Positions 17,087 to 41,738 of a DNA stretch of 64,000 bases are shown here, piece after piece. Position numbers and translations under genes: made by a program. This DNA comes from a virus. Lineage: Duplodnaviria; Caudoviricetes. The DNA is taken from positions 1,035 to 65,034 of the IMG/VR virus record IMGVR_UViG_3300027983_001732; one strand, given 5' to 3'. Below the pieces are notes generated by a model. It saw only the letters and a list, made by a program, of their open reading frames with translations, searched no databases and was not told the origin of the DNA. Position 1 is the first letter of the stretch, and every line of letters begins with the position of its first letter.

Positions 17087-17122
17087 GTGCCTTGATACTA
17101 TCGTTACGAATAGCATAGGCAC
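17087..17122 (-). repeat. Solitary variant of the array repeat (family A)
   Basis: Minus strand GTGCCTATGCTATTCGTAACGATAGTATCAAGGCAC, 29/36 identical to the array repeat. Confidence 0.8.
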
Positions 17123-17265
17123 AAGTAATGACATCATGTCTAGCCGCAGTTGTGTCTAATTCTTGTCAATCAGACACATAACCCCCATCTTTCATACTAT
17201 AGTGACAACTATTCATATTATGTTTTAGTATTGAAATTTTCGACAAATTTTATTATACATAAGAT

Positions 17266-18054
17266 ATGGGAAATTTTAAAAAATTCATAGAATCAACTGG
17301 AATAGTCAGACACGATTTCAGCCATTTATCAAAAGATGAAAGATTAAAACAAGGAAAAGATATTGGAGAGAAATTTATTAAAGATGAACTTCTCAATCAC
17401 GGAATCAAAATCGTCACAGTCGATAACATGATGTCACTTGACACTAAGTTGAAAATTGACGGATACCTCAACGGAAATCCCAGCGAACCAGTTCAAATTA
17501 AATTGAGAAAAACTGGTCGAGGTAGTGATGATATAGCATATGAACTAATTCTTGGCTTTGATCCAAAACTGCCAGTTGCAGATCAATTAAACAATCCAAG
17601 AACACAAGGTCGTGATTACAAAGGACAATCTGTAAAACATTATTTTGTTATGAATCAAGATGAAACCCAAATATATCACATTCCAGCAGATATGCTAAAA
17701 ACAACAGCACTTGACGCTATAAAGCAAACTAGCGGAATAATCGACAGAGCGTTCAGAACGAAAAATGGTGTTGAAATAAGACCAACTACCGATAATAGTT
17801 CTGGCGTCTCAAAATTGATGGTTTTTATACCAGCAGAACGAGTCGCAAAAGAAGCATACACAGTGGGTCAAGGAAAAATCCAACCTACATTCGGTGCCAA
17901 CTCTGGACCTCACACATCAATGTCAAAGAAAGATTTCAATATAGCTGCCGCAGAAGAACGATTAAAGAATCTTCAAGCAAAACAAAAATTAGCTAATGAT
18001 TTTCGTAAACAAAAGCAGGCAACTCCTGCTCAAACTGATGTTGATATTTCATAA
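17266..18054 (+). CDS. Hypothetical protein, possible PD-(D/E)xK fold, with capsid-targeting-like N-terminus
   Basis: MGNFKKFIE start; KIDG...VQIK motif. Confidence 0.55.
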   Translation: MGNFKKFIESTGIVRHDFSHLSKDERLKQGKDIGEKFIKDELLNHGIKIVTVDNMMSLDTKLKIDGYLNGNPSEPVQIKLRKTGRGSDDIAYELILGFDPKLPVADQLNNPRTQGRDYKGQSVKHYFVMNQDETQIYHIPADMLKTTALDAIKQTSGIIDRAFRTKNGVEIRPTTDNSSGVSKLMVFIPAERVAKEAYTVGQGKIQPTFGANSGPHTSMSKKDFNIAAAEERLKNLQAKQKLANDFRKQKQATPAQTDVDIS

Positions 18055-18464
18055 TGCGTGTTCAAAATAGTTCGATAAACAGACATGTTCGGCACCTTTC
18101 TTTCGAACCAATAATTATCTTCTCCACGACCATGATAAATATTCTCAATTGCAGCAGCAACGGCTGGAGATCGTGACATGCCTGCATGACAATGAACTAA
18201 GAAACATTCTACCTGCGGCCACATCTCTTTGACAAAATCCAAAATTTGCTTAGCCTTCTGTGCGTCAAATATCAACTCAGGAGGCGTTGTTGGTCGAGGA
18301 AAATCAATGTCTTCAAATGACATGTTTAATAGACCAACCCGATTCTCTTTAGAAAGAATCGGGTTTTCGCCTACATTGTCAACAATGCTAATGCCTGCCC
18401 ATGGCACAGAACATACAAACTTGCGAGCATCCGAAAGTGATCTTACTTCAATGGACCTTCTCAT
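18030..18464 (-). CDS. Protein tyrosine/dual-specificity phosphatase-like protein
   Basis: VHCHAGMSRS (CX5R). Confidence 0.8.
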   Translation of the reverse strand: MRRSIEVRSLSDARKFVCSVPWAGISIVDNVGENPILSKENRVGLLNMSFEDIDFPRPTTPPELIFDAQKAKQILDFVKEMWPQVECFLVHCHAGMSRSPAVAAAIENIYHGRGEDNYWFERKVPNMSVYRTILNTHYEISTSV

Positions 18465-19009
18465 TATCTAAAATTTCTTTCTAGCATGTGTTGAAAGCCT
18501 TTTGCTGATTTTGTCAATTCCGGCTTTATTGTAATTGGCTTTGTGTTTCTAACACTAGCAGACAACTCAATCGTTATTTTTGATCCACCACGATATGGTT
18601 CAACTTTGATTACTGTTTTTTGGTCTTCAATCAATCCACTATGAACTTCAATAAGTTTTGAACTGTAATTGTAAGTGTCTCCAGAATCAGAAGAGGATTC
18701 ACGCACTGTGAATTCCATCATACCTTTTTGTGTATCTTGTCTTAATCGTATATTGTCTCCATCCTTAGAAATTATTTCTCCGCCAGTTGATCTAGCGACT
18801 TCCTTTGGATGAGCCTTTAGCCATGTTGAGACAACACTTGGTTTTTCTCTAACTTCAAATTCTTTTGCGTGCCATGATTCTCCACCAAACGATGTAGATG
18901 TCACAAAAAATACGGCTACTACTGTGATTATTCCTTTAAGCATTTTTGTACCTGTAATTTGAAAACGAAAAGAGACCATACTGTTAACACAACAAGCATA
19001 GTCTCTCAT
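18464..19009 (-). CDS. Hypothetical exported protein
   Basis: Signal-peptide-like MLKGIITVVAVFFVTSTSFG; true start may be this downstream Met. Confidence 0.55.
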   Translation of the reverse strand: MRDYACCVNSMVSFRFQITGTKMLKGIITVVAVFFVTSTSFGGESWHAKEFEVREKPSVVSTWLKAHPKEVARSTGGEIISKDGDNIRLRQDTQKGMMEFTVRESSSDSGDTYNYSSKLIEVHSGLIEDQKTVIKVEPYRGGSKITIELSASVRNTKPITIKPELTKSAKGFQHMLERNFR

Positions 19010-19049
19010 CTGGTTTTATTTGAGTTCGGCACAAGCTTTCACTCATACA

Positions 19050-19084
19050 GTGCATAAAAGCTGGGAATTCCCAGCGATTTGCAC
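19050..19084 (-). repeat. Solitary repeat-like unit, family B
   Basis: Minus strand GTGCAAATCGCTGGGAATTCCCAGCTTTTATGCAC; matches the 28788 and 41707 copies. Confidence 0.75.
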
Positions 19085-19225: not shown

Positions 19226-19261
19226 GTGCCTTGATTCTATCCTATTGAATAGCATCAGTAC
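19226..19261 (-). repeat. Solitary near-perfect array repeat (family A) overlapping the uvsY stop codon
   Basis: 35/36 identity; TGA stop at 19255-19257 lies inside the repeat. Confidence 0.92.
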
Positions 19262-19797
19262 ATCGCAGAACGTAAGTCATCTGCGAATCCGCCTTTTTCA
19301 TCTTCACTATAAGACTTGATTGTTTCTGAAATCAAATCATCATTAACTCCGCTGTGCATGTAACCTTTGCCACCCATGATGTCACTATTGAGCTTATCCA
19401 TCATCTTGCGTTGCATGTGCCCCAAACTCTGAGCGTTGTCGTGATTCTTGTCCCAAGCACGCAAATGTTGCTTCAATCTATTGACAGCATATTTTGCATC
19501 ATTAACTTTCTCTTTAAAAGCCACAACATCTGGATCAGCCTTTGCCTTTGCTTCAGCTAACTTGTCACTGCCGCCAGACTCCTTTGCTTCAATAAATCGA
19601 TCAGCCGACAGTTTTTCATGGCGTAATTCGAAGTTCTGTAAATTCTTCTCAGCTAATGAGAGATAAGCTCCGAAATTGTCGTAGTAACCAGCTTCAGTCT
19701 GAATATATTGAGACAGATTGTTTTCATTGAAACGAAGGTTTTCTGGATCAATTTCAACAATAACTCCTGCAAACTCTAACTTCTCTTTTCTTGACAT
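19255..19797 (-). CDS. UvsY-like recombination mediator
   Basis: Helical protein with SDKLAEAKAKADPDV pattern, downstream of helicase in a UvsX/gp32 context. Confidence 0.55.
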   Translation of the reverse strand: MSRKEKLEFAGVIVEIDPENLRFNENNLSQYIQTEAGYYDNFGAYLSLAEKNLQNFELRHEKLSADRFIEAKESGGSDKLAEAKAKADPDVVAFKEKVNDAKYAVNRLKQHLRAWDKNHDNAQSLGHMQRKMMDKLNSDIMGGKGYMHSGVNDDLISETIKSYSEDEKGGFADDLRSAMY

Positions 19798-19880: not shown

Positions 19881-21386
19881 TTAGTCTTCTTTTTCGTCAA
19901 CCGCTGGAAGGATTTCATCATCTTCTGGTGCAAACGGCTTAATGATGTGATCCATTTTTACATCATCAACTACACTTTCTTTATGAGAGTTAAGCAGTTG
20001 CATATATGTGGATTGATGTATTTCTGTAATTTTTAGATTTTGTTTATTGAAGCCAAGATAAATTTGGAAGCGACTCAAACCATCACGTTGCTTAATTACA
20101 TACATCCTTCCAATTCCAAGCAATTTTTCTCCATCATTCTGCATTATAGAAAAACATCCATCCAATGGTCGTATCTGACCAAATGAATCAGCCAAATGTT
20201 CATCATCAAGACGACCGCCCTGATTTTTCTGAACTTCTTTCGATCCACGATTAGGCTGCATAGCAGTTGCTACAAAGACATTTTCTTCTGTAGCCAAAGC
20301 ACGCAAATCACGAACAGTTTTTTCACGACTCTCGTAAGTCTTCATTCCGGGCATGTCGGCCATTTCGCCAACATAGTCCACAATCACAAAATCTGGATCA
20401 AATCCATGAAACCTGAGTTGTGAAATATAGGCTCTAACAGTGTTTACTGTAGCTGTGCCAGCCGGAAACTGCTTGATTACCAATGGCATTTTAGATTCAT
20501 AATCTACGCCTTCAATCTTTGCCAATTCTTCAAATATGGACTCACGATGCCCATATAAGTTTTGCACTGGAAAACCAGTAAGAATGGAATCCATGCGGTC
20601 TGCCACTTTAACTTCTGCAAGTTCCAAAGAAATGTACACGCCCTTTTTGCCACGCATTAAATTTGTAGCTGAAAGACACGCCAACATTACTGATTTTCCA
20701 ACCCCTGAACCAGCAACAAATGAGATGATTTCACCTCTGCCATAACCGCCACCATTGATTGATTTGTCAATGGATTCCAGCCCAGTTATAAACCGTTCTT
20801 TATCTTCTTCATCTGTAACCATATCAGCATATCTCTGCTGAATTGTCTTGAAATAATCAAGACCTACTTCAAAATTCTGATGCGTTGTCATCGCTGTACG
20901 CATCATTTCATATATTTTTGTCCAAGTTTCTTCCGATTCAGGACTCTTGTCAATTTCTTTCAGCGAATTAGTAAATGCTTGTTTTACTGATTGAATCTTT
21001 GCAAAGTATGTGATTTTGTCTTGCAAGTATTCACGAGCATCCAATCCCGGCTGAAAATAATCATAAAGAGTATTAATTTCACCAATGTAATAAGATAAAG
21101 CTTTATTGTCCTTAAGACTGCTTTTTATTTCTTGGACAATGAAATCTTTGCCCGGAAGTATTCGGTATTTCTTAAAGAAATTAAATGCTAAAAATGCGGC
21201 TTTTTGATGTGCTTTGTTTGTGAAATACGCTGGCTTTATAAGGTCTAAAGATTGCAACAGAAATTGTCTGTCACAAAGAACAAGAGCGATAATGTGTCTC
21301 TGAAACTCCTCATCCCAACTGTACTTAACATCAGTTCCGTCTTCGTCTGGATCAGATAATGTTGGATCGTCAAAAATATCACTCAT
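19881..21386 (-). CDS. Replicative DnaB/gp41-like helicase
   Basis: AGSGVGKS, ISLEL, IVDY, TAMQPNR, LADSFG, IKQRDG. Confidence 0.9.
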   Translation of the reverse strand: MSDIFDDPTLSDPDEDGTDVKYSWDEEFQRHIIALVLCDRQFLLQSLDLIKPAYFTNKAHQKAAFLAFNFFKKYRILPGKDFIVQEIKSSLKDNKALSYYIGEINTLYDYFQPGLDAREYLQDKITYFAKIQSVKQAFTNSLKEIDKSPESEETWTKIYEMMRTAMTTHQNFEVGLDYFKTIQQRYADMVTDEEDKERFITGLESIDKSINGGGYGRGEIISFVAGSGVGKSVMLACLSATNLMRGKKGVYISLELAEVKVADRMDSILTGFPVQNLYGHRESIFEELAKIEGVDYESKMPLVIKQFPAGTATVNTVRAYISQLRFHGFDPDFVIVDYVGEMADMPGMKTYESREKTVRDLRALATEENVFVATAMQPNRGSKEVQKNQGGRLDDEHLADSFGQIRPLDGCFSIMQNDGEKLLGIGRMYVIKQRDGLSRFQIYLGFNKQNLKITEIHQSTYMQLLNSHKESVVDDVKMDHIIKPFAPEDDEILPAVDEKED

Positions 21387-21486
21387 TTATACCTCTTCTT
21401 TAACTAGGCTTGTTAGCCGAGATATTACAGAAAAGTCTGAATTTCGTCTAGTCAGCTTGAATAAGAAATCTGAACTGTGCAGGCAA

Positions 21487-23355
21487 GTGCCTTGATTCTA
21501 TCCTATTGAATAGCATCAGCACAAGAAAAATCGGTCTTTTAGTGCCTTGATTCTATCCTATTGAATAGCATCAGCACTTGTTCTTTTTGTGGCTCTTCTG
21601 CCAACGTACTTTGCGTGCCTTGATTCTATCCTATTGAATAGCATCAGCACAGTAAGTCTGATTCGTGCCTTGATTCTATCCTATTGAATAGCATCAGCAC
21701 TTTTGACACTTGATGACTTACTGGTCTCTTGCTGGTGCCTTAATTCTATCCTATTGAATAGCATCAGCACGAGGATCAAAGACCTTTGTGAGATCAAAGG
21801 TTTCAAGTGCCTTGATTCTATCCTAGCAATTTGACCGCTGTCGTCGGTTGCTTTGTGCCTTGATTCTATCCTATTGAATAGCATCAGCACCAAACCCTTT
21901 TTTGACATCACTAACTGGTGCCTTGATTCTATCCTATTGAATAGCATCAGCACACCCGAGTCTTCAGTGGACACGTGCCTTGATTCTATCCTATTGAATA
22001 GCATCAGCACCGAGGGGCAATTTTTCACCGTTTGTCGGCAATCAAAGTGCCTTAATTCTATCCTATTGAATAGCATCAGCACCTGATTTCAAGATTCGAA
22101 TCTTGTCCAGTGAGTAACGTGCCTTGATTCTATCCTATTGAATAGCATCAGCACATGAATTTAACTGTTCTTGTCGTGTCATTGTGTCTAGTGCCTTGAT
22201 TCTATCCTATTGAATAGCATCAGCACAAAATAGAAGTGAGTTCCCCGACCTGTAGTGACTTCCGTGCCTTGATTATATCCCATTGAATAGCATCAGCACT
22301 TGTGAGGGAAGAAGACTCAAATCTTATCTGACAAGTGCCTTGATTCTATCCTATTGAATAGCATCAGCACTGTTACTAACCGACACTCAACAAGCGGAGT
22401 CAAATGTGCCTTGATTCTATCCTATTGAATAGCATCAGCACCTCATTGCCGCCGTCAGGGTGATAGGTGCCTTGATTCTATCCTATTGAATAGCATCAGC
22501 ACTGGTGTGTGTATTCCAGAAGAGAGAGGTTGAGAGGAGTGCCTTGATTCTATCCTATTGAATAGCATCAGCACCGTTGGTTCTATTTGTGTTTTTGACC
22601 AACTCAAGAGTGCCTTGATTCTATCCTATTGAATAGCATCAGCACGTGATCAATTGCTCAAAGTAGGCAGTTGGCTGTGAGTGCCTTGATTCTATCCTAT
22701 TGAATAGCATCAGCACTTTAGTGTCTGACCTTTCCAGTGTGTATATCTGCTGTGCCTTGATTCTATCCTATTGAATAGCATCAGCACACAATTCCGTTTC
22801 CGCACATCCACGCAAACCTGTTGGTGCCTTGATTCTATCCTATTGAATAGCATCAGCACGCTTGTCGCTCAAGTTCTCTGATCTCATCAGGATAGTGCCT
22901 TGATTCTATCCTATTGAATAGCATCAGCACGTGTATCCACCTGCTGATAAATCTCCAGTTTCTAGTGCCTTGATTCTATCCTATTGAATAGCATCAGCAC
23001 TTTTTCTGCTGGTGCGTCCGAAATTAACCCCCCAGTGCCTTGATTCTATCCTATTGAATAGCATCAGCACGTATACCCCCCAAAACTCAAAGCGTATGTC
23101 CTTTGTGCCTTGATTCTATCCTATTGAATAGCATCAGCACTGCTGGTCACACAGACAGCAGCAGTTAAGTTTGTGAGTGCCTTGATTCTATCCTATTGAA
23201 TAGCATCAGCACATCTTGACGATCGTTTTCTTTACGAGACGCTTGCTGTGCCTTGATTCTATCCTATTGAATAGCATCAGCACCTCTAAGACAGCAAAAC
23301 TTATCTTTCCTTCAGAGCCGTGCCTTGATTCTATCCTATTGAATAGCATCAGCAC
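21487..23355 (-). CRISPR. CRISPR array: 28 repeats (one truncated), 27 spacers; sense repeat GTGCTGATGCTATTCAATAGGATAGAATCAAGGCAC
   Basis: 36-nt repeats counted by hand; most spacers 34-37 nt; shortened spacers mostly at the cas-distal end; starts 65 nt after the cas12h stop. Confidence 0.98.
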
Positions 23356-23420
23356 TGCTGTCTTCGTAAGTCCAATCAGCCAAACAACATAAACATTCAA
23401 AAATCATGCACGTGGCACAA

Positions 23421-26186
23421 CTAAGCCGTATGATCTTTCAAAATCGTTTTAAAGTCAACGTCTTTTGTCGTAAGTGCTTTAGCACCAACATCTTTTGAAG
23501 AATCATGCACCTCTGGTAAGGCAAAATTGTTGTATCTTCCATCTGGATCACATGTTACGTCAAATTCTTGGCAATTCGGCTTCTCCACGGCTAATTGCTT
23601 GATTTTGTTTACCATCTCGTTGTGCAGTTCGCAAGTAACAATACAAGAGGAATGTGCATAAACAAACTGGTTAATCAATCGAGTTTGAGTGCTATCAATT
23701 TTTTTTGCAAATGTAACTCGACCTCTATCATCCGAAACAAATTTAGGGACAGAAGAACCGTACTTCAAATTGAAAAATCTCTTAATACGCTTGCCAATGG
23801 CTTCTTCAGGTTTCTTAATCGCATTGATGCTATCCTGAGTGGAATTCGGCTTATTTTCATATTCCTTGACATAGAATTTGTATGGACAAACAGAATGGTT
23901 TAAACCTTGAATCAAAATATTCATCGTGGCAGCCAGATCTGAATCAATCCAACCCAATTGTTTGTCTCTGACAACATACAACCTAGATTTGTTTTTGTCA
24001 TCACGCCATCCGGGATTGGAAGTAACAGGATCGCTTTGTGAAGTGCCATTCTTGGCGACTTTTACAAAACCAACTCCAATTTTTTCAAGAGCTTCTATAA
24101 TGTATTTTAATAATGTCGCCGCCGAAAACAAACGCAACAAAGCATTGTTGTTTTTGTCTGAATCAAATATGAAATCAAGATCTTCTCCAAACACAACATT
24201 ACAATCTTTCATTTCATTGGCAATCTTTGACGCAAGTTGTCTCAAAACAAAATTTCTGAAATTTGCTCTGCTTTTATCAAACTTTGCGACTTTTACCAGT
24301 TTTTCTCCCGATTTCAAATGAATTCTATTATAAGATTCAGCCATTGAAGCACACTGATCCATAGCCTCAATCAAACGAATATTATCTGCACAATCACGAT
24401 ATCCTCCAGAACGCATCTCAAACTTAATTTTTCTCAAGCGAGAATTGATTTTTTTAACCCATGACTGAATTAAATATCGAGTTGAAGAAGATTTTGTGTC
24501 TCCACATAAAATCAAAAAATCACGAGTGTCTTCACCCACATGTTCTTTAACTGCGTTAGAAACTTTAAATTCTCTGATTGCTCCAATAACACGTCTGGCA
24601 TCGTCTCTGATTTCTATCAAATTTTTGATTCTTGGACCATTTGCCACCAACATGAATGGTTTTTTAATGAGATTCCCTGAACCATAATCTAAAGCGTTTA
24701 ACTGTCCGCTTTTGTCGTCACGATAAACAACTGCTTTAACGGCAGCGACAGGATTTGACACATTCAGATCAATAGCTCCGACGACTATTTTGTCAGGAAG
24801 ATTCTCTACATTTTCTTTCTTTGGACAAGCCGACATAAAAAATTCTGCAATTTTGAAGTTTTTCTCGTCGTGATGAATCGAATAAGGGAGTGATACAAAA
24901 AACCCAGAATCTGTATTACGCAAACCAATCTCTTTAAGAACCCCAGAAATTTTATCTCCTGTATGAGATGCTGCTTTTACGGCCTTCTTGCCTTTACTTA
25001 TCGACTTATGACAGAAATTCAAAGAATAACCAGTACGACCATTTTTATTCCTAATTTCATCAAAAACAATACCGCTGAAATAACAAGATGCAGCACACCT
25101 TATGACTCCGACACCGACGATTTCAATAAGCACATCGCCAGAATCTTCAACTGACACAGTGAAGTTTCCTAGAGATCCCTGCCCTACAGGAACTTTATAG
25201 TCATTTCTATTTGGATCGAAACAAGGATACAATTTTCTTTTTTCTAACTGTTTCTTTGTCCTCCAGCAAGAATAAGCTGACATAATTTCTGAATATGATG
25301 ATTCAATCAGAATCCTGTATTTATTCTTCTTAAGTTCTTTAACAGCAAGTCTGATATCTGTTTTTTCTCCAGTTCCTTTTTTTACATGATCTATGCCTTT
25401 TGTCAAAACATACTTTGTGAGACCTGAATTTTTCGATTCTAATTCTGCTGCAAAACAACAAATAGAATCATAAACAGGCCCTTGTTTATCATTCATCGAC
25501 AGTTTAATCTTTTCTGTTTCCAACAAATGGTTGTTGTACTTCTCGAAAATGGACCTCAAATCCCTGCCAACCATCTCTATGAGAATGCGACAATAATTAC
25601 AATCTCTTGAACGAATGCAAGACAATCCAAATGCCAATCTGAGATCCACTCCTAGCGATCTTTCAATTGATGCCAATCTGGGAGACACTTCCGCCCAAAT
25701 TTCAGGCAGTGGTAAATTTTTAACTCCATATTCCAACCATTCTTCAATGCAAATTTGAGAAAGTTGTTCATCGGTCTTGAAGTATTCTTTAATCTTGTTT
25801 TCATCGAGCAAAGGCAAGGCTGACAAAAAATCATTCTTTTTTTGTGTTAATTTAGCCTTCCCCAGAGACTTGTAATTTCTATAGAAAACATTGTAACAAG
25901 AAGAAGCATTTTCACCTCCTTTAAGAAGAAGTTCAATAAAACTAACTGCCAACTGTTCTTTTTTGGCGTCACCGATTGTTAATGATCTCAATCTTTCGGA
26001 TTCTTCTTTAGATGTGTAAAACACTTCATCTTCGGCATTTGTGCCATAGCCAATTGCCATCCACCCAAAAAATAAATTCAAAAAAGAACGGTAGTCCGAC
26101 TGTAAATCTGCATACCACTGCATGACTTCTTCAGCAGTATTCTTTGCCTTAAGGTTTCCGGTTCGAATAAAAGATCTTGTAGCCAT
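23421..26186 (-). CDS. cas12h: Type V CRISPR effector, Cas12h-like (subtype V-H), about 921 aa
   Basis: RuvC motifs GAIDLN, VFGEDL, IDSDLAA; segments WYADLQ, LKGGxxxSSCY, ALDYGxG, GLNHSVCPY resemble Cas12h1 as recalled from memory; adjacent array with GTGCTG...GCAC repeat; start at MATRS after an AAAGGGA RBS. Confidence 0.85.
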   Translation of the reverse strand: MATRSFIRTGNLKAKNTAEEVMQWYADLQSDYRSFLNLFFGWMAIGYGTNAEDEVFYTSKEESERLRSLTIGDAKKEQLAVSFIELLLKGGENASSCYNVFYRNYKSLGKAKLTQKKNDFLSALPLLDENKIKEYFKTDEQLSQICIEEWLEYGVKNLPLPEIWAEVSPRLASIERSLGVDLRLAFGLSCIRSRDCNYCRILIEMVGRDLRSIFEKYNNHLLETEKIKLSMNDKQGPVYDSICCFAAELESKNSGLTKYVLTKGIDHVKKGTGEKTDIRLAVKELKKNKYRILIESSYSEIMSAYSCWRTKKQLEKRKLYPCFDPNRNDYKVPVGQGSLGNFTVSVEDSGDVLIEIVGVGVIRCAASCYFSGIVFDEIRNKNGRTGYSLNFCHKSISKGKKAVKAASHTGDKISGVLKEIGLRNTDSGFFVSLPYSIHHDEKNFKIAEFFMSACPKKENVENLPDKIVVGAIDLNVSNPVAAVKAVVYRDDKSGQLNALDYGSGNLIKKPFMLVANGPRIKNLIEIRDDARRVIGAIREFKVSNAVKEHVGEDTRDFLILCGDTKSSSTRYLIQSWVKKINSRLRKIKFEMRSGGYRDCADNIRLIEAMDQCASMAESYNRIHLKSGEKLVKVAKFDKSRANFRNFVLRQLASKIANEMKDCNVVFGEDLDFIFDSDKNNNALLRLFSAATLLKYIIEALEKIGVGFVKVAKNGTSQSDPVTSNPGWRDDKNKSRLYVVRDKQLGWIDSDLAATMNILIQGLNHSVCPYKFYVKEYENKPNSTQDSINAIKKPEEAIGKRIKRFFNLKYGSSVPKFVSDDRGRVTFAKKIDSTQTRLINQFVYAHSSCIVTCELHNEMVNKIKQLAVEKPNCQEFDVTCDPDGRYNNFALPEVHDSSKDVGAKALTTKDVDFKTILKDHTA

Positions 26187-26224
26187 TGATGTCCCTTTGA
26201 GTTGTTGATTGTAATCAAACAATC

Positions 26225-27505
26225 TTAAAGAACACAATCAATGTTGTCAACTCGAATCACATCAGAATTATCCTGTGTTAACTGAGCAAGGATTTCTGCA
26301 TATTTTAACCCAACATTTTGCCATGAGTTTTCTGTAACAAAGTTTTTTGATTTCTGTAACAATGAGTTCCTGTAATCTCCAGATGTGAATACTTTAGCGA
26401 TCTCATCAGCTAATTCTTCTGGATTGCTTGGTCGTGGAACAACTCCATCGAGATCATCAAACAAATGACAGTCACTAGCGATCACGGGAATGCCATTTGA
26501 CATCGCCTTGCGAATCGCACCAGATGCCCCATAAACCGTATTCTTCGGATCGTTCTTGTATGGGAAGACCGCCAACTTAGCAGTCCTCAAGAAGTTCTGC
26601 ATGTGCTGCTCAGACAAATAGCCACGCAACACAACTACGTTATCTTGTAACCCTTTCTTTTCAACTAGATCTCTAATCTCATTGTAATATCGAGCCTGAA
26701 TTGAACGTGTGTGATTGCTCTCGCTGCACAAGAAACAATAAAATATATCCTTAAACTCTTCTGATCTGTTCTTCAATATACTTACAGCCTCTATTGCACA
26801 ATCAAGACCTTTATAATCAAAACCAAACCCAAATTGAATAATCGTGCGTTCGTTTTGAAATATATTCCACAATTGCTGTGTGTTTTCATATAAGTTGCAA
26901 CCATGCGGCAAAACAAAAACTTCATTACGATGACCCAGCCTCTCCAAACATATTTTTCCATTTGGATTATGAGTAATGATGTTTTTGATATAAGAAGTGC
27001 AAATTGTTTTATCAAGATGCTCATAAACCGAATGCAAAGTAATCACATAAGGAATGTTATTAAACATTTCAAGTAATTTAAGGAAATGAGTGGCTTTTGG
27101 AAAAATTCCAAATTCATGTTGGATGAATATTATGTCTGGACCATAATCAATGATCTGTTGAGCTAAATCAATGCAACTCTGCCCACGTTTCCAACAGCGT
27201 TCAACATCATCATGAGCACCTTCCATAGTTTCTGCAAATATCTTGACTTCTTTGACATGTTTGCGAAGTTCTGGAATTAGTTGCTCGCTATAAGTTGCGA
27301 TTCCACATTGATCGCCCCAATTACAGATCCCGGCAACCTTCAGTTTACTCAACGGCTTTGCATTTCCTACAACAACCTTCTTTCCGACCAGAGACTTGTT
27401 TTCTTCCAAGCCCGGCACATAAATGGTTTTGTTGCCGCCGATACGAATGGCTTTATCTTTAGAAACCGCCTGTATCATTCCTGCTTGATTGATCGAAACG
27501 TACAT
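26225..27505 (-). CDS. GT4-like glycosyltransferase
   Basis: CGIATYS, IQHEFGIF, FGFGFDYKG, SGAIRKAMSNGIPVIAS. Confidence 0.85.
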   Translation of the reverse strand: MYVSINQAGMIQAVSKDKAIRIGGNKTIYVPGLEENKSLVGKKVVVGNAKPLSKLKVAGICNWGDQCGIATYSEQLIPELRKHVKEVKIFAETMEGAHDDVERCWKRGQSCIDLAQQIIDYGPDIIFIQHEFGIFPKATHFLKLLEMFNNIPYVITLHSVYEHLDKTICTSYIKNIITHNPNGKICLERLGHRNEVFVLPHGCNLYENTQQLWNIFQNERTIIQFGFGFDYKGLDCAIEAVSILKNRSEEFKDIFYCFLCSESNHTRSIQARYYNEIRDLVEKKGLQDNVVVLRGYLSEQHMQNFLRTAKLAVFPYKNDPKNTVYGASGAIRKAMSNGIPVIASDCHLFDDLDGVVPRPSNPEELADEIAKVFTSGDYRNSLLQKSKNFVTENSWQNVGLKYAEILAQLTQDNSDVIRVDNIDCVL

Positions 27506-30976: not shown

Positions 30977-31059
30977 CTTCAGTCCATAAGGGATGCCATG
31001 GTTGTGATCATAATAGATATAAAAAATAAAATCACTTTATATTTCCTTAAGTAATAAGG

Positions 31060-31432
31060 CGATTTACAAAGTGCGTGCATTCTCTACACCCAGTGAAAAT
31101 GACTCTCACTGCGTCTATTATGATACAACTTGAAGTTGTTTTAATTGATGGTAGTTGTGCTTCACACTTGGGTGATTCCCAAGTGATAATCACGAATCTC
31201 CTAACCAGATGACCTGCTCGTAGCCCCGGCAGCCGCTTTAAAAAGCAGAACGAGCATTCATGGCATCGCCGGGTTTAGTGATCTGGATTACCTAGATTCT
31301 TGACACAAGACGCTGAGTTCCCTAAACTCGTCCGGTTGCGGTAAGACCTACCCGCTGTCAAGGTTTTTCGCCGGATTTCAAGTGACCATCTGACCTGAAA
31401 TACCCGACCTGTTAATTTGAAAGTAGCTTCAA
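31060..31432 (-). ncRNA. Candidate structured non-coding RNA or long leader
   Basis: No ORF; many inverted repeats; GC-richer than flanks; downstream of a sigma70-like promoter. Confidence 0.4.
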
Positions 31433-31437
31433 CTCTA

Positions 31438-31466
31438 ATCTTATCAAGTTAACTTAAAGAAAGCAA
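31438..31466 (-). promoter_or_regulatory. Sigma70-like promoter with extended -10
   Basis: TTGCTT-N17-TAAGAT with TGn immediately before the -10. Confidence 0.55.
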
Positions 31467-31555
31467 GACCTTTTCTGTAAAAAGATCCATTGTTATAAAC
31501 TTTTAAAACAGATACAGTACATGCTCACAAGCATAAATATGAAAATTCTTTAATT

Positions 31556-31591
31556 GTGCTGATGTTATTCAGCAGGATTGCATTAATGCAC
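31556..31591 (+). repeat. Solitary array-repeat variant (family A) containing the RBS and start codon of the next gene
   Basis: GTGCTGATGTTATTCAGCAGGATTGCATTAATGCAC, 29/36 identity; ATG at 31586. Confidence 0.75.
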
Positions 31592-32314
31592 AGATACGAC
31601 GCTATTTTTGAATGGAATATGACTTCTCCAGAGACCGAAGCCTTTAAATTGGCTGTTCTTTATGAGCAAGAATTCTTAAGATTGTTCGAAGGAACAGAAG
31701 AAATTGATGGACAAGGGTTCAGAAGAAATACAATTCCAAAACGTGGAGACCCTCGAAAGTCAGATTTGTTTCGCCAATGCTGGAAACTCCGTCGAGAAAC
31801 AAGAGGTTTGTTAACAGGAGAGCAGTACGTTAATTATGTTAAGGCTAATTTGGCGATATTGAAGATCAACAAATCTCATGTTTCTCCCAATGCCATTTGC
31901 GGAGACAAAGCGTGGATTAGATGGAAGGTTTGGGAAAGATGGTACACTCAAAAAATGAGCGAAAAATCTTGTGTCGCACCACCACCATCTGTATCGACCA
32001 CAGATCCGAAGATCATTCGAGAAATTGATAGAACGAAAAAGTTTTTGTTCGAAAAATGTGATGGAGAACCATCATCTGAAAAAATTCGTGGATTCATGGA
32101 AAATGGATTTTTTAAACTTTGGATTGTTTCTGGCAAGGCTTCAATCTATTATGTTATGATGTCTCCATATGCCCAACCATTCATCAATGATTTAGCTCAA
32201 TCGTGTTCTTTTGACCCTCCAGTGTTTCGAGAAAAAATAACTTCTGAAGTAAGGGATTACTTTCATTATGAGTTCAATCACGAGTTTGACAGAATTCGGC
32301 TCCCTTCAAATTGA
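31586..32314 (+). CDS. Hypothetical phage protein
   Basis: 242 aa from ATG 31586; AGGA upstream within the repeat. Confidence 0.65.
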   Translation: MHRYDAIFEWNMTSPETEAFKLAVLYEQEFLRLFEGTEEIDGQGFRRNTIPKRGDPRKSDLFRQCWKLRRETRGLLTGEQYVNYVKANLAILKINKSHVSPNAICGDKAWIRWKVWERWYTQKMSEKSCVAPPPSVSTTDPKIIREIDRTKKFLFEKCDGEPSSEKIRGFMENGFFKLWIVSGKASIYYVMMSPYAQPFINDLAQSCSFDPPVFREKITSEVRDYFHYEFNHEFDRIRLPSN

Positions 32315-35455: not shown

Positions 35456-36158
35456 ACAATTTTTGCAAGAGATGCCAATGAGCTTAAATTTTGCTGGCAA
35501 TAATTGGAATGATTTAGAACAAAATGCGAAAGCGGGACAAGCAACAGGTCGTTTCGACGCTGCATCTACAAGAATGTTATATTCTAATAAAGCTAAAGCA
35601 AAAATCGTAAAAAGACTTGAAAATGTTCCTTATGATTTTAATGTTTATTTTGTTAAAACTAAACGAGGAATATCCAATACTAAAATTGATAAATCACAAA
35701 TGAATTCGTATTACAATCAAATGGGCATAACTCCAGATGAAGCTCCGATCATTGATGGAAAAATTAATATGTTTATTTGTAGTTGGGAAAATGATCCTCC
35801 AACATCTTGGATGATTGTTCATAGATTTGCTCATTCTAACAACGAACTAACTCAATCCTTATACAAAATAATACACCAACATGGCAAAAATATGCACGGA
35901 ATTAGAAGTCAATATCCAGAGTTTGACATCATATCAAAATATGGAACCATGAAATCTGCAACAACTGGAAGATTAGGTGCTAATGACGAACCTATTCACG
36001 AAATTATCGCACAATTTATTATGAATGGAAAAGTTACATTTAAAACCTCTCCAAATTCAATAATAGACTCACAATTGAAAAACATTGAATCTATGATTAA
36101 TGTTACAATAAAAAGCGGTCTGGAAAATGCAGAACAATATGTTTATTTTTTATTCTAA
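35442..36158 (+). CDS. Putative internal head protein
   Basis: MKTFKQFLQE start; WMIVHRFAH motif. Confidence 0.55.
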   Translation: MKTFKQFLQEMPMSLNFAGNNWNDLEQNAKAGQATGRFDAASTRMLYSNKAKAKIVKRLENVPYDFNVYFVKTKRGISNTKIDKSQMNSYYNQMGITPDEAPIIDGKINMFICSWENDPPTSWMIVHRFAHSNNELTQSLYKIIHQHGKNMHGIRSQYPEFDIISKYGTMKSATTGRLGANDEPIHEIIAQFIMNGKVTFKTSPNSIIDSQLKNIESMINVTIKSGLENAEQYVYFLF

Positions 36159-36166
36159 GGAAATAA

Positions 36167-37340: not shown

Positions 37341-39548
37341 ATGAGATTCTACGAATTCCACCAAATTGTTAAATCAGAAAATCCGCCAGCACTCAAGCTG
37401 CAATGGGACTATAACGCCGATACGTTCCGATCATGGCTTATGTCTGAAGTTACTAAGGATATTGTCAGGGAATTGGAATCGTGGAAAGATGAAAATCCAG
37501 ACGAACTGCCATTTCATGGACTATTTCCTGCTGAAAATGATGAGTCAATCACCCGGAAAGTCATTCCATTCACCGCTGATCCAAACGCAACAGGAATTTT
37601 AGATAAAATCAAAAACGCTGGACTCACTATCGACTTCAAAACAGGTACAGTGAGCAATGGACAACGTGCTAATCGCTTAGGTAAATTCGTATTAAACAAA
37701 AACTCTCCGTTCTCATCAGAAGAAAAGATTTGGTGGAACCGTAGCGGTGAACCGGTGCCAGAACTTCAAAGAACACAAAGCACTCACCAATACTCAATAG
37801 TTGTATCTCGCAATCCTGTTGATATTGCTCGCATGTCAGATCATGACGGATGGACATCATGTCATTCTCCAAGTCGTGAATATTTTCAATGTGCCTTAGC
37901 TGACGCTAAAGGTGGTGGGGCAGTAGCTTACGTCGTTAGAAAAGATGATCTAGCTGGCATTGACCTCCAAGAGCCAGAAATCTTTTCAGATAAAAGACGG
38001 GGAGTCAGTGGCGTAAACCCCATGTCCAGAGTGAGACTACGCAAATTCGTTCATAAAGAAGATGGATATGATCTCGCAGTTCCCGAAAATGTCGTTTATG
38101 GAGAAAAATTCCCCGGACTAGCCGATAGCGTAAGAGATTGGGCATTACAGTCTCAACAAGATATTCTAAAAGGTCAAAGAGTCCGTATGAAGGATTTCCG
38201 ATTAATGGGCGGCAGCTACCAAGACACAAGAGGAAGCCGTTTATTTAACTATCTATTTGACGATGAACTCGATACTGGAGATGCTGATTACGGCGGCGAG
38301 GATGAAGGACAAGGAATGTTTGACCAATACGAAGAAGAAGTCGAAATAATTGAACAAGAATACAGAGATAAATTCACTATTTGTTCCTTTTATGTAGAAG
38401 TACACGACTCCGAAGGTCAACCATATGTTGATTTCAGCGGCACTGCATACATCAAAATTCCAGAAGAACTACTTCTGACACCACCAGATGAAGCAGATAA
38501 ATGGGACCCAAAATCTAAGCGACGACAACTCGATGAAGGTCTCAAAAAATGGGCCAGAGAAAACGACATCTATAATGTCAATGAAATTAAATTACTTGAT
38601 GACGGAGTGCGTATCGACATTTATTCTGATGACGACGATGCCACGCCAGATGGTTTTAGAAACTTCCTCAGACACAAACTCAGCGATATTGACGGCAGGA
38701 AAGATGAACTCACAGCCAGCTTGTATCACAAATTGGTCGAACTCGGATTAGCAACTGCAAATAAAGTCTCAGAAATTAATCTGGATGACGACAAGACTGA
38801 TGAAGAACATATATTCCAAAACTTTGAATGGCAAGGCGAAAGCCCAGAAATCTCAATAGCACTCAAGCAACCAATGGAACTACCATCGCCGCCAACACCA
38901 AAATCTGGCGCTGCCCCTCAACACGAATATCCACATTGGCAAGATCAATTCAAAAACACAGTCACACAACAAATCAAAGCGTGGGCGAATAGAGTTTTTG
39001 TCAATCAGAAACAACAATTATCGCTCTTTCCAGATGCGAATGACCATAAAAAACCATTTGAACTGCATATCAAACCTGAGATCGAACTGAAGTCAAGTCA
39101 GAGAATATGGGAACAAGGACAACCATTATTAATGTATATGACGCTTAAATTCGAGACATTCTCAGATGATGAACATGTTGAAGAAGCAATTAATTTCGTT
39201 AAGTTTTTAGATAAGAGCTTCCCTAAATTTGAGAGTATGATACATCAGATATACATGAATTGGAGCAAAAATTTTTACAGGTCGATCATGAATCAGCAAC
39301 AGTGGCAGCCTCAGCAAACTGGTAACTGGAACTCCACTGGGTTCTGGAATTCACAACAAGATTCTCAGTCACAACAAGCTCAGTCACAACAACAAGCTCA
39401 GTCACAACAACAAGCTCAGTCACAACAAGCTCAGTCACAACAACAAGCTCAGTCACAACAAGATTCTCAGTCACAACAAGATTCTCAGTCACAACAAGAT
39501 TCTCAGTCGAAAGGTACGAAAAAACATGACAAACATTCCATTGTTTAA
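37341..39548 (+). CDS. Large hypothetical phage protein with Gln/Ser-rich tail
   Basis: 735 aa; SRNPVDIARMSD..WTSCH motif. Confidence 0.7.
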   Translation: MRFYEFHQIVKSENPPALKLQWDYNADTFRSWLMSEVTKDIVRELESWKDENPDELPFHGLFPAENDESITRKVIPFTADPNATGILDKIKNAGLTIDFKTGTVSNGQRANRLGKFVLNKNSPFSSEEKIWWNRSGEPVPELQRTQSTHQYSIVVSRNPVDIARMSDHDGWTSCHSPSREYFQCALADAKGGGAVAYVVRKDDLAGIDLQEPEIFSDKRRGVSGVNPMSRVRLRKFVHKEDGYDLAVPENVVYGEKFPGLADSVRDWALQSQQDILKGQRVRMKDFRLMGGSYQDTRGSRLFNYLFDDELDTGDADYGGEDEGQGMFDQYEEEVEIIEQEYRDKFTICSFYVEVHDSEGQPYVDFSGTAYIKIPEELLLTPPDEADKWDPKSKRRQLDEGLKKWARENDIYNVNEIKLLDDGVRIDIYSDDDDATPDGFRNFLRHKLSDIDGRKDELTASLYHKLVELGLATANKVSEINLDDDKTDEEHIFQNFEWQGESPEISIALKQPMELPSPPTPKSGAAPQHEYPHWQDQFKNTVTQQIKAWANRVFVNQKQQLSLFPDANDHKKPFELHIKPEIELKSSQRIWEQGQPLLMYMTLKFETFSDDEHVEEAINFVKFLDKSFPKFESMIHQIYMNWSKNFYRSIMNQQQWQPQQTGNWNSTGFWNSQQDSQSQQAQSQQQAQSQQQAQSQQAQSQQQAQSQQDSQSQQDSQSQQDSQSKGTKKHDKHSIV
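39351..39508 (+). repeat. Coding tandem repeat of 15/18-nt units (SQQ(Q)AQ / SQQDSQ)
   Basis: CACAACAAG(ATT)CTCAGT-type units. Confidence 0.9.
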
Positions 39549-40653
39549 AGTTTTCATGGCTGATACCGCCGCTAAAGAAACAGGGGAAATTCTTAAATCT
39601 GGGTATATTGGGCAAGGTCCAAAAGTTGATGAATTTGAGAGGTTATTAAAGAGACATTTCAATAATGACTATGTTGTGACAGTTAATTCTGGAACTTCAG
39701 CCTTGCAATTAGCTGTTCATTTGATAAAGCCGGAAAATGGATTTTCTAATAGCGATGAAATCATTGTTACTCCATTGACATGTTTTGCGTCAATATCTGC
39801 GATTATAGCAAATGGTTGTAAGGTCAGATGGGCTGATGTTGATCCAAAAACATGTAACATTGATTTGGTTGATGTTGAGAGAAAACTTGGCCCTAATACA
39901 AGGGCTGTGATGGTGGTTCATTGGGGCGGAACTCCTGTTGACATTGATGAATTGTCAAGGATCAAAAAGAGATATAAAGAAACTTATCAAAAAGATCTTC
40001 ATATCATTGAAGATTGTGCTCATTGCTGGGACTCTAAATATAAAAATCGGTTAATTGGCAATAGCGGAAATTTTTGTTGCTTTAGTTTTCAGGCTATAAA
40101 ATTTTTGACTACAGGAGATGGTGGACTGCTAATCACACCTGATGCCTCTCTGTACAAAAGAGCAAAAAATCTCAGATGGTTTGGATTAGACAGAGATTCT
40201 GGTGCATCTTTTCGTTGCATCCAAGATATAGAAGAAAGTGGTTTCAAATACCATCTTCATGATATTGGAGCTACTATTGGCATAGAAAATCTATATCACA
40301 TGTCGGAAGTTGTATCTAAGCATAAATCCAATGCGTCGTTTTTTAACAAAAATTTATCATCGGTTTATGGCGTTACTCTGCTTGAGGAAAGTCGGCATTC
40401 AGAATCAAGTTACTGGTTATTTACAATGCTTGTTGAAAGAAGAACTGAGTTTATTGCCAAGATGGAATTAAAAGGAATCATGTGTAGTCCTGTTCATGCT
40501 AGATGCGACAAACATAGCTGTGTTTCTGATTTTAGGTCATTTTTGCCCGGAATGGATTATTTACAAACACAACATGTTTCTATTCCTTGTGGATGGTGGG
40601 TCAGCGATAAAGATCGAAATTATATTGTCGATTGCATTAAAGAAGGTTGGTAA
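39526..40653 (+). CDS. DegT/DnrJ/EryC1/StrS sugar aminotransferase
   Basis: NSGTSALQLA, IIEDCAH, FSFQAIKFLTTGDGG. Confidence 0.92.
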   Translation: MTNIPLFKVFMADTAAKETGEILKSGYIGQGPKVDEFERLLKRHFNNDYVVTVNSGTSALQLAVHLIKPENGFSNSDEIIVTPLTCFASISAIIANGCKVRWADVDPKTCNIDLVDVERKLGPNTRAVMVVHWGGTPVDIDELSRIKKRYKETYQKDLHIIEDCAHCWDSKYKNRLIGNSGNFCCFSFQAIKFLTTGDGGLLITPDASLYKRAKNLRWFGLDRDSGASFRCIQDIEESGFKYHLHDIGATIGIENLYHMSEVVSKHKSNASFFNKNLSSVYGVTLLEESRHSESSYWLFTMLVERRTEFIAKMELKGIMCSPVHARCDKHSCVSDFRSFLPGMDYLQTQHVSIPCGWWVSDKDRNYIVDCIKEGW

Positions 40654-41189
40654 GAATGTTTAAGCACAATGGATTGAACTTAACAAAATTGCAAAGAGAA
40701 GATCTTTCTTTGTTGTTAGATCTGAAATCTGAGAGTTGGGAGACAACACATCATATTACAATTGCAACAATGGAAGATCAGGTTCGATGGTTCGAGTCTC
40801 TTGATAAAGATGTGCATTCACCTTGTAGCCTTGTTCTTATGGCTTGTGATAAAGAAAATTCAAAAATCGGAATATTCAAAATTTCCAGTGTTGATTGGGT
40901 GAATCGAACAGCGGACGTGGCATGGGATATTTTCAAGCCTCATCGTGGCAATGGATTCGGTAAATCATTAGTCGCCGCTGGGTCAACATTCTGTTTTCAG
41001 ATTTTGAATCTTTGGCGTTTGAATTGTGAAATCTTAGAAACAAATACCGTTTCTCAGAAGTGTGCATTTTCAGCCGGGTTCGAAAAAGAAGGTGTCAAAA
41101 AAGAATCGGTGATCAAGCTTGGATCTTATGTGGATTCAGGAATTTATGGATTGTTGGCAGAAAACTTCATCGCTTTACATCCATTGTAG
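40647..41189 (+). CDS. GNAT N-acetyltransferase (PseH/RimJ-like)
   Basis: HRGNGFGK, LETNTVS, GFEKEG; follows the aminotransferase. Confidence 0.8.
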   Translation: MVRMFKHNGLNLTKLQREDLSLLLDLKSESWETTHHITIATMEDQVRWFESLDKDVHSPCSLVLMACDKENSKIGIFKISSVDWVNRTADVAWDIFKPHRGNGFGKSLVAAGSTFCFQILNLWRLNCEILETNTVSQKCAFSAGFEKEGVKKESVIKLGSYVDSGIYGLLAENFIALHPL

Positions 41190-41224
41190 AATTAAGTATG
41201 ATGCAATATTTACTGGAGCCAGAA

Positions 41225-41704
41225 ATGATTGTTTTGAAAAAAATTATCTCGGGGGCACAGTCGGGGGCTGATTTAGCGGCATTAGAGGTCGCAAAGAAGT
41301 TTGGATATGAAACTGGCGGAGTCATGCCTTTTGGTTACAAAACTCTTGAAGGGTTTAAACCTCAGTATAAAGAGATGTACGGATTGACAGCCCATTCTTC
41401 CTCTAGTTATACCCCTCGTACTCGCCAGAATGTGAAGGATTCTGATGGCACTATCCGATTTGCATACAATTTTGAATCTCGTGGCGAGATTTGTACGTTG
41501 AAAGCCATAGAATATTACAAAAAACCTCATTTAAATGTGGATTTAAATGATGTTCTTCCGATTTTTACCGTTACAGACTGGATTTTGTGCCATAGAATAG
41601 AAGTGTTGAATATCGCAGGAAACTCCGAACAAACTTCTCCGGGCACTCATGAAGCCACAACTTGTTACTTAGAAAGTCTTTTTCAAGCTTTAAAGGACAA
41701 TTAA
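41225..41704 (+). CDS. SLOG-family (putative molybdenum carrier-like) protein
   Basis: IISGAQSGADLAAL, RTRQNVKDSDGT, LNIAGN. Confidence 0.75.
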   Translation: MIVLKKIISGAQSGADLAALEVAKKFGYETGGVMPFGYKTLEGFKPQYKEMYGLTAHSSSSYTPRTRQNVKDSDGTIRFAYNFESRGEICTLKAIEYYKKPHLNVDLNDVLPIFTVTDWILCHRIEVLNIAGNSEQTSPGTHEATTCYLESLFQALKDN

Positions 41705-41706
41705 CC

Positions 41707-41738
41707 CAGATCGCTGGGTATTCCCGGCTTTATGGCAC
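41707..41738 (+). repeat. Solitary repeat-like unit, family B
   Basis: CAGATCGCTGGGTATTCCCGGCTTTATGGCAC, at a gene junction in sense orientation. Confidence 0.75.

Follow-up and report, generated by a model that had tools for sequence, protein, structure and literature searches.

Can a phage make use of single CRISPR repeats that lie scattered between its genes, outside any array? This question is raised by a 64,000-nucleotide (nt) stretch of phage DNA, hereafter the window, which comprises bases 1035-65034 of the 65,034-bp IMG/VR virus record IMGVR_UViG_3300027983_001732. The window carries a gene for the CRISPR effector Cas12h, a CRISPR array next to it and, elsewhere, at least nine repeat-like units of two families in 62 kb. 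A preliminary description of the sequence had reported seven of these units and had proposed that Cas12h acts on them in RNA processing or regulation. Here, we show that two 36-nt CRISPR repeats of the Cas12h type underlie the units, which are genuine solitary copies of them: one forms the array of this phage (family 1), the other the array that a near-identical sister phage carries at the same locus (family 2). We also propose, tentatively, that the intact copies serve as RNA handles for Cas12h-family proteins.

Solitary copies of two CRISPR repeats

The cassette and the units of the window are listed below. Family 1 units were scored against the array repeat of the window, and family 2 units against the array repeat of L010, a contig of the sister phage described further on.

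21487-23355, minus strand: CRISPR array, 27 copies of a 36-nt repeat (minus sense GTGCTGATGCTATTCAATAGGATAGAATCAAGGCAC) with spacers mostly of 34-37 nt
23421-26186, minus strand: cas12h, ATG at 26186, ribosome-binding site AAAGGGA; 921 amino acids, identical to P0001
17087-17122, minus strand: family 1 unit, 29/36 identical; fold kept, -14.4 kcal/mol
19050-19084, minus strand: family 2 unit, 32/36 identical; fold kept, -16.9 kcal/mol
19226-19261, minus strand: family 1 unit, 35/36 identical (G3 to A); fold kept but weaker
28788-28823, minus strand: family 2 unit, 36/36 identical; fold kept
28864-28881, minus strand: half copy of family 2, identical to the first 18 nt of the 28788 unit and lying 40 AT-rich nt upstream of it
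30940-30976, minus strand: family 1 unit, 31/36 identical plus a 1-nt insertion; fold lost
31157-31193, strand ambiguous: family-2-like hairpin of 37 nt with GTG...GCAC ends and an 8-bp stem; family membership uncertain
31556-31591, plus strand: family 1 unit, 29/36 identical; fold lost
41707-41738, plus strand: family 2 unit, 5' GTG missing; upper stem kept

All seven units named in the preliminary description were recovered. To these we add the half copy at 28864-28881, the family-2-like hairpin at 31157-31193 and an array-type unit in a second contig, G006. A search with the array repeat allowing three mismatches has an expectation of 0 chance matches. Covariance models were built separately for each family; a joint MAFFT alignment misaligned family 1 with family 2. 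Over the whole unfiltered window, the family 1 model recovered the 27 array copies and four solitary units at 49-62 bits and nothing else above 12.7 bits (E 0.59), a result that shows only the absence of further copies, the model having been trained on the same ones. With the models of both families, no additional copies were found in the window. Outside the array, nine places with 11 strand-hits matched a structure descriptor (GTGC...GCAC, 35-37 nt, 6-bp upper stem), compared with a mean of 1.8 in shuffled sequences (n = 30). Four of these places (6286, 49287, 50168 and 60094) have the appearance of chance matches. Two further candidates with GTGC...GCAC ends (35977-36012, 18/36; 5522-5558, 14/36) lie inside open reading frames (ORFs) and were also taken as chance.

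The units are all intergenic save for overlaps with a stop or start codon, in agreement with the gene-junction position that had been described. Each is thus a single repeat-like copy outside an array in intergenic DNA, as solitary repeat units are defined; the pair 28788/28864 would count as a mini-array under the SRUFinder rule. The copies form a series of 36/36, 35/36, 32/36, 31/36 and 29/36 identity, ending in the half copy and the 5'-truncated copy at 41707. We considered that family 1 might be more decayed than family 2, but the counts (35, 31, 29 and 29 versus 36, 32 and 31 of 36) showed no clear difference.

Fold, ends and orientation

The two families are isomorphic. They share the same length, the GUGC.GAU...GGCAC ends, an upper stem at positions 10-15/20-25 and a 4-nt loop, and all six upper-stem pairs differ between the families on both sides and still pair. 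In the minus sense, the array repeat folds into an elongated stem-loop (-12 kcal/mol, z -3.9). This fold agrees with the CRISPR RNA (crRNA) of Cas12h1, which in its mature form is reported to lack a 5' flank and to comprise the complete 36-nt repeat, folded as a stem-loop, and then a spacer of 26 nt (PMC11830025).

The preliminary description held that all copies keep the 3' GCAC end and largely keep the central hairpin. The 3' end was indeed kept in 8/8 full-length units. The hairpin was found in the 17087 unit, in weaker form in the 19226 unit and in the three family 2 units, but it is lost at 30940 and 31556. The 17087 unit, with seven substitutions, folds better than the array repeat itself; only 1.0% of 5000 random variants with seven substitutions folded as well, or 1.8% if only internal positions were mutated.

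All eight window units with an assignable strand, at six loci, point in the direction of the gene that they face, as had been noted. The additional copy in G006 lies on the strand of its transfer RNA (tRNA) genes and is thus in sense orientation as well. Sense orientation at 7/7 loci (six in the window and one in G006) has a chance probability of about 0.008.

A terminator scan gave calls at two family 2 cores (19060-19075 and 28799-28814), where a 6-bp GC-rich stem is followed by TTTTAT; two to three calls per region were also obtained in shuffled sequences. The family 1 units, which have no T run, were not called.

Sister phages and the origin of family 2

A helicase search of IMG/VR gave four related contigs at 89, 87, 69 and 64% amino-acid identity. 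The sister contig L002 is collinear with positions 10359-46000 of the window save for local replacements, chiefly in the slot that holds cas12h and the array. These four records, searched whole (203,814 bases), contained no Cas12h, no array and no family 1 or family 2 units, and 27 further related jumbo-phage loci (292,543 bases) contained no unit detectable with either model, giving in total about 496 kb of unit-free related phage DNA. All the window sites compared with relatives lacking Cas12h were empty (8/8, the half copy at 28864-28881 not being compared as a separate site), and so was the G006 site. Units were present in the window, in G006 and in L010. Only the phage lineage with the CRISPR cassette took up units in its intergenic DNA, and they were gained or lost as small precise indels.

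According to the preliminary description, absence of the copies from syntenic sites of related phages would mark them as neutral debris of old arrays. To the letter this was found, all comparable sites being empty. However, the same relatives also lack Cas12h and the array, so this comparison cannot separate debris from Cas12h-dependent elements.

The family 2 core was absent from IMG/VR. We asked whether it is a host repeat, but its matches in one species genome and one short metagenome contig lay inside a bacterial coding sequence and lacked the repeat ends, and were attributed to chance. The core also matched a 24.7-kb metagenome contig (L010, Ga0163144_10007051) three times at 72-nt spacing. 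At 3343-3586, this contig has an array of four family 2 repeats, three of them identical to the 28788 unit, set 58-72 nt apart from start to start with spacers of 21, 36 and 36 nt. The mini-array stands between a glycosyltransferase gene and a DnaB-like helicase gene, which is the position of cas12h and its array in the window. L010 and the window are 97.7% identical at the glycosyltransferase end, up to 17 nt past the stop codon; there the similarity breaks and the L010 mini-array starts. Neither cas12h nor a family 1 array was found at this locus of L010. The second family of the preliminary description thus corresponds to the repeat of the L010 array.

Three phages hold different contents in the glycosyltransferase-helicase slot, making it a swap hotspot: cas12h with the 27-repeat array in the window (21397-26287), the 4-repeat array alone in L010 (3343-3586), and four unrelated genes, including one for a NUDIX protein, in L002 (6846-9990).

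The Cas12h effector and its array

The identification of a phage-borne Cas12h was upheld. In a phmmer comparison with Cas12h1 (PDB 8y9l), the effector matched over nearly its full length (E 7.9e-191; query 25-887 against chain residues 8-849). The catalytic residues D465, E658 and D740 named for Cas12h1 (PMC11830025) align with D, E and D of the phage protein. The RuvC triad is thus intact, and its columns are invariant in 22 aligned family members. The Cas12h family is small, as 1.84 billion proteins yielded 50 representatives at E<=1e-30, and querying IMG/VR with a single protein and two alignments revealed no other Cas12h loci. The same protein is also encoded on a contig of 108 kb, and another Cas12h (P0002) is 72% identical.

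The array begins 65 nt downstream of the cas12h stop codon. Its end far from cas12h is irregular: the spacers there measure 14-27 nt, and the repeat at 21807-21825 is truncated. This pattern is in keeping with minus-strand transcription that starts from the cas12h side. The Pfam families Cas1 and Cas2 had no match in the 65-kb record, which is about 13% of the estimated genome, while controls matched; the adaptation module is thus absent at the locus, a statement that covers the locus and not the whole phage. None of the transposase families matched among the window ORFs scanned.

Homology to Cas12h1 over the full length of a ~900-amino-acid effector, the RuvC triad and an adjacent array whose 36-nt repeat forms an elongated stem-loop place the system in type V-H. 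It resembles the Cas12h1 system also in the array lying just downstream of the gene and in the lack of detected Cas1 and Cas2 in the record; the repeats were compared by length and fold. The systems differ in setting. Cas12h1 comes from a metagenome of unknown origin, whereas the present system lies within the replication module of a jumbo phage.

Context of the individual units

The 17087 unit lies in a divergent intergenic region and faces the gene at 16402-17019. It is followed, after about 24 nt, by a strong terminator hairpin:

17027-17062, minus strand: terminator-like hairpin, 16 bp and a T run, 3' of the 17087 unit

This terminator is conserved in sister phages with compensatory changes, and the locus therefore has the appearance of a small-RNA gene. 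Consensus scans alone gave promoter-like sites 95-160 nt upstream of the unit in addition to the terminator downstream. The sister phages have a shorter, unrelated hairpin at the spot of the unit. The layout of 17027-17160 and of its equivalents in L001 and L002, namely a 5' hairpin, about 20 nt of single strand and a strong terminator, makes this a small-RNA-like locus in three phages. In the sisters, the single strand (...ACACCTCCATCTAA) resembles an anti-Shine-Dalgarno sequence. The 5' hairpin is a CRISPR-repeat unit in the window only, and AGTGCCTT downstream of it can pair with the 3' end of the unit.

The first 7 nt of the 19226 unit form the last codons and the TGA stop of ORF 19255-19797. 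This ORF had been labelled uvsY; the label is not retained, as the ORF had no UvsY match in Pfam at E<=5. An additional gene, for about 130 amino acids, occupies this site in L001 and L002, and in L002 the gene upstream of 19226 is followed by a hairpin and then a T run. L010 carries a decayed family-1-like unit at the same stop codon.

Forty-one nucleotides separate the 19050 unit from the ATG of ORF 18464-19009, downstream of it. Compared with L001, L002 and L010, this unit is a clean insertion of 37-38 nt, and a contig of run X6 that is about 88% identical skips exactly 38 nt here. Three nucleotides after the 28788 unit starts the ribosome-binding site AGGGGGA, followed by the ATG of ORF 28485-28775. 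The intergenic region around this unit is replaced in L002, where it is unalignable and contains a terminator.

About 67 nt separate the 30940 unit, absent from L002, from the ORF of a family A DNA polymerase (29550-30872) downstream of it, and the polymerase named as a neighbour in the preliminary description is thus correct. The 31157-31193 hairpin sits in the divergent region beyond, where L002 differs. The 31556 unit contains both the ribosome-binding site AGGA (31574-31577) and the in-frame ATG (31586) of the ORF ending at 32314; L002 has its own ribosome-binding site there.

The 41707 unit follows the cpYpsA/SLOG gene (41060-41704), beginning 2 nt past its TAA, and reaches into the start region of the next gene, the kinase-like ORF 41732-42322. 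The sister phage L006 lacks this unit, and the intergenic region is replaced there. In L006, the segment at about 5600-6500 (equivalent to window 41473-41864) has about 0.8 kb of extra sequence in or beside the cpYpsA/SLOG gene; an ORF in it resembles, by eye, a UV-damage endonuclease. Directly 3' of the kinase-like gene that starts at the unit is an HNH/endonuclease VII-like gene (42301-43053; PHROG matches 1e-15 to 1e-19). It may be a homing endonuclease and could drive local gene conversion.

Copies outside the window

A family 1 pattern matched one other contig in IMG/VR, G006, which is 36.4 kb long, has no overlap with the window and no Cas12h, and contains one exact copy (36/36) of the family 1 repeat. 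This copy lies inside a cluster of 11 tRNA genes, 34 nt after tRNA-Phe. The sister locus L019 has 13 other bases at the same site. Relaxed ARAGORN read the G006 unit and the 51 nt downstream of it as a marginal tRNA-Leu. That the unit had disrupted a working tRNA gene could be rejected, since L019 has the same uncalled tRNA-like remnant without the unit. The remnant (variable arm, T arm and 3' acceptor strand) lies between tRNA-Phe and tRNA-Ser and is conserved in G006 and L019. The clusters themselves have 11 tRNA genes in G006 (L013 3043-9698) and 21 in L019, many of them for Leu, Ser, Phe and Tyr.

A contig of run X1 matches the window only at 28788-28823, with both flanks different, and its downstream flank (in unit sense) contains AAGGAG. 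It therefore indicates another family 2 copy elsewhere in the sample, perhaps elsewhere in the same phage genome.

Proposed role of the units

We propose that intact units act as Cas12h-binding RNA handles, in cis or as decoys. We infer this from the homology, fold, lineage-specific presence, orientation and context of the units, and rank it first, with slightly less than an even chance. Being co-oriented with the genes that they face, the units would be transcribed inside messenger RNAs (mRNAs), and one of them inside a tRNA precursor. Intact units would fold like the crRNA handle, with a GUGC/GCAC base, the 6-bp upper stem and the 4-nt loop. A Cas12h-family protein could then bind the handle, cut just before nucleotide 1 as in the array and stay on the downstream RNA. 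At the 19226 unit, the message of the upstream gene would thereby be cut 4 nt short of its stop codon. Protein bound at 28788 would cover the ribosome-binding site, and at 41707 it would sit on the start region of the next gene. The resulting complexes would be non-targeting and would use up effector by titration. The protospacer-adjacent motifs (PAMs) reported for Cas12h1 are 5'-DHR and RTR (PMC11830025). All units end in CAC, which does not fit DHR. The complexes would be harmless, because their guides match only the phage's own DNA, where CAC occupies the PAM position. Own-type units might in this way tune the phage's own Cas12h, and family 2 units might soak up the effector of a rival phage in the manner of an RNA anti-CRISPR (Racr).

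Several observations favour this proposal: the co-occurrence of units and cassette, the identity of family 2 as the repeat of an actual array, the isomorphism of the families, the CAC ends, the sense orientation, the fold of the diverged 17087 unit and the intact RuvC triad. The unit at the 19226 site is decayed in L010, whose locus is without a family 1 array or cas12h. The presence of family 2 units here and of their cognate array in a sister phage is compatible with a Racr-like role against a rival.

A number of points weigh on the other side. Intergenic position alone would be expected under any model. Two of the four own-type units (30940 and 31556) are without the fold, the 41707 unit has no 5' end and another is only a half copy, so that many copies appear not to be under selection as handles. 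The sense bias is weaker than it looks, as four of the loci lie beside the array and share its strand, and local copying could explain their orientation. Family 2 is not necessarily a ligand for the Cas12h of this phage, and binding of a rival's protein to the units at ribosome-binding sites would harm the phage's own genes. Self-processing is attributed to Cas12h by subtype, and the maturation of Cas12h1 crRNA is described in PMC11830025 only with a co-expressed array. None of the array's spacers matched GenBank phages, and none matched the relatives, the window or the other fetched loci. Likewise, the 30 nt after each of ten units, compared with the window and the fetched loci, matched only their own locus or its sister equivalents. 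All seven sequencing runs in which the sequence occurs are DNA runs. Taken together, the descriptive parts of the preliminary description stand, while the identity of family 2, the two lost folds and the guide matches change the picture that it drew.

Alternatively, the units may be functionless products of neutral or selfish spread, in which repeats were copied from arrays by microhomology-driven recombination or template switching during highly recombinogenic T4-like replication, persisted wherever they were harmless and then decayed. The decay series down to the half and 5'-truncated copies and the two units without a fold are what such a process would leave. Presence varies among close relatives, including the exact 38-nt skip in the X6 contig, and units lie at larger rearrangements in the sisters (gene loss at 19226, replaced intergenic DNA at 28788 and 41707), with a swap hotspot at the glycosyltransferase-helicase site. 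No target of a pseudo-spacer was found in the window and the fetched loci. However, neutral spread explains neither the sense orientation at 7/7 loci nor the kept, even improved, fold of the 17087 unit. It would also have to proceed with neither Cas1 nor Cas2 in the record and no transposase family among the scanned ORFs, and we know of no mechanism for the clean insertion of one 36-nt repeat without a spacer. We therefore regard it as unlikely, though it deserves serious consideration. A role independent of Cas proteins, as terminators, attenuators or stabilisers of mRNA ends that replaced ordinary hairpins of the sisters, would account for the sense orientation too. The family 2 core is terminator-like at 19050 and 28788, L002 has a classical terminator at 28788 and a hairpin with a T run near 19226, and the sisters have their shorter hairpin at 17087 in the same small-RNA-like locus. 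This explanation nevertheless seems improbable to us, as family 1 units have no T run, a terminator 3 nt before a ribosome-binding site or in a 5' untranslated region (UTR) would cut off the gene behind it, and neither the kept GUGC.GAU/GGCAC ends outside the terminator-like core nor the restriction to phages with the CRISPR cassette is explained.

The preliminary description had also suggested that single guides might be made from mRNA. Within the window and the fetched loci, we saw no sign of acquired or regulatory pseudo-spacers. A further possibility concerns the sister phages. A unit could turn the conserved sequence next to it into a crRNA against them, the phage's own copy being shielded by CAC at the PAM position and the empty sister site being exposed. 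The 26 nt after the 31556 unit do match L002 at 25/26 positions from position 1, with GTG, which fits both RTR and DHR, at the PAM position. Yet this is a single case, and the 31556 unit is one of those without the handle fold. At 19050, the sister sites are mismatched in the first nucleotides and have TTC at the PAM position, and at 30940 the sister sequence is unrelated. Moreover, DHR is so loose that about 28% of sites fit it by chance. We hold such guide production to be very improbable.

Genome setting and other features

The phage is a giant (jumbo) freshwater phage. CheckV estimated the completeness of the record at 13%, and relatives of one sister contig are 370-620 kb long, which indicates that the window is a fragment of a jumbo-phage genome. 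The replication and recombination genes of the region are T4-like and include a UvsX-like recombinase, a single-stranded DNA-binding protein (SSB) and helicases. Two genes named above also belong to it:

19881-21386: DnaB-like helicase
29550-30872, minus strand: family A DNA polymerase ORF

Minus-strand genes extend to about 30.9 kb, plus-strand genes take over at about 31.6 kb, and the GC skew turns where the gene strand switches. In the divergent region between the polymerase and the plus-strand genes, a block at 31200-31400 is 85-100% identical to L002, whereas the flanking genes are about 72-78% identical. The block is GC-rich and structured in appearance, and Rfam gave no match for it, neither at the gathering score nor with E<=1; a conserved non-coding RNA is one possible identity, a replication or regulatory element another. 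Rfam gave only noise at 30900-31600 and 0 matches at the gathering score in the window as a whole.

Three tandem or direct repeats were also observed. An 18-bp tandem repeat with at least 10 copies occupies 63730-63999 and continues past the window end. A CAA/CAG-rich coding repeat of 15/18 bp (39347-39532) lies at the end of ORF 37341-39548. Finally, an exact 51-bp direct repeat (58929-58979 and 59073-59123, 144 bp apart) was found within ORF 58805-59890.

Comparison with known systems and implications

Racrs are single viral repeats outside arrays that bind Cas proteins in non-productive complexes (Camara-Wilpert et al. 2023, PMC10651486; PMC11656645), and non-targeting crRNA is reported to inhibit likewise (PMC10651486). 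The present units resemble Racrs as single repeats in intergenic phage DNA that mimic the sequence and fold of a real repeat, and in the proposed binding of a Cas protein. As described in these reports, Racrs match a CRISPR system of the host, have no adjoining cas genes and often lie just downstream of a promoter. In contrast, the cognate effector and array are here in the phage itself (family 1), or the array is in a sister phage (family 2), and the family 1 units, only 2-8 kb from their cognate cas12h and array, are not mimics of a host repeat in a phage without its own cas genes. There are at least nine units of two families in 62 kb instead of one, and most of them lie in UTRs or over stop and start codons instead of forming separate small-RNA genes.

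crRNA-like RNAs (crlRNAs) combine a degenerate or stand-alone repeat and a spacer-like stretch in a Cas effector for a task other than defence, and type V-A regulators of this kind exist (10.1101/2024.10.29.618823). The 17087 unit, followed by about 24 nt and a terminator, has the same RNA layout. In the studies of CreA, CreR and Cracr, the pseudo-spacer is reportedly complementary in part to the promoter of a cas, toxin or defence gene; the pseudo-spacers of the present units differ in matching, within the window and the fetched loci, only their own locus and its sister equivalents.

Viral mini-arrays, which related viruses employ in competition with each other, are described as using host Cas proteins and as having spacers that mostly match related viruses (PMC11656645). 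The 4-repeat array of L010 without an adjoining effector gene, the different repeat types of close relatives and the half and full family 2 pair at 28788-28881, which resembles a decayed mini-array, are reminiscent of them. Here, however, the repeats go with a Cas12h family that is phage-borne, and about 450 kb of related phage DNA gave no match to the 27 spacers of the window array or the three of L010.

The units are also short palindromes in intergenic DNA that are co-oriented with transcription, and in this they are similar to repetitive extragenic palindromic (REP) elements and miniature inverted-repeat transposable elements (MITEs), which are short palindromes dispersed in intergenic DNA. 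They differ in that no dedicated transposase was found among the scanned window ORFs and that the units are homologous to a working CRISPR repeat. In engineered systems, repeat hairpins placed in mRNAs are cut by Csy4 or Cas12a, acting as RNases, to separate cistrons. To our knowledge, no natural use of a Cas12 effector for mRNA processing is known, and none appeared in the literature searched. That literature likewise contained no comparable set of units, a statement that leaves aside the supplementary tables of SRUFinder.

Whatever the units do, the locus shows a Cas12h system residing in the genome of a jumbo phage. The origin of Cas12h1 is called unknown in PMC11830025, where phages appear only as suspected sources. 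We found no report of Cas12h in an identified phage genome in the literature searched, supplementary tables being outside this scope.

The solitary phage repeats known so far mimic host repeats and poison the host's Cas proteins, whereas here the phage itself bears the cognate effector and has many units. These fall into two families that match in structure and are tied to two sister phages, and they are found at stop codons, at ribosome-binding sites and in a tRNA operon. The sister comparisons provide unusually clean before-and-after sites for the question of how a single repeat is inserted. In the most far-reaching version of our proposal, Cas12h would be, besides a DNA-targeting nuclease, a structure-specific RNA-binding and RNA-cutting factor acting on hairpins throughout the genome, in the phage's own mRNAs and a tRNA precursor, and sister phages would carry each other's repeats as decoys. 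We judge this version to be distinctly doubtful. If it is true, it would constitute a natural CRISPR-repeat regulon, of which a genome of about 500 kb could hold dozens of units at a density of nine in 62 kb, and the clean insertion of single repeats would point to a mode of CRISPR-repeat movement that is still unknown. If Cas12h acts on the units at all, they would represent either a natural involvement of a Cas12 effector in RNA processing or regulation, or RNA decoys in use between competing phages.

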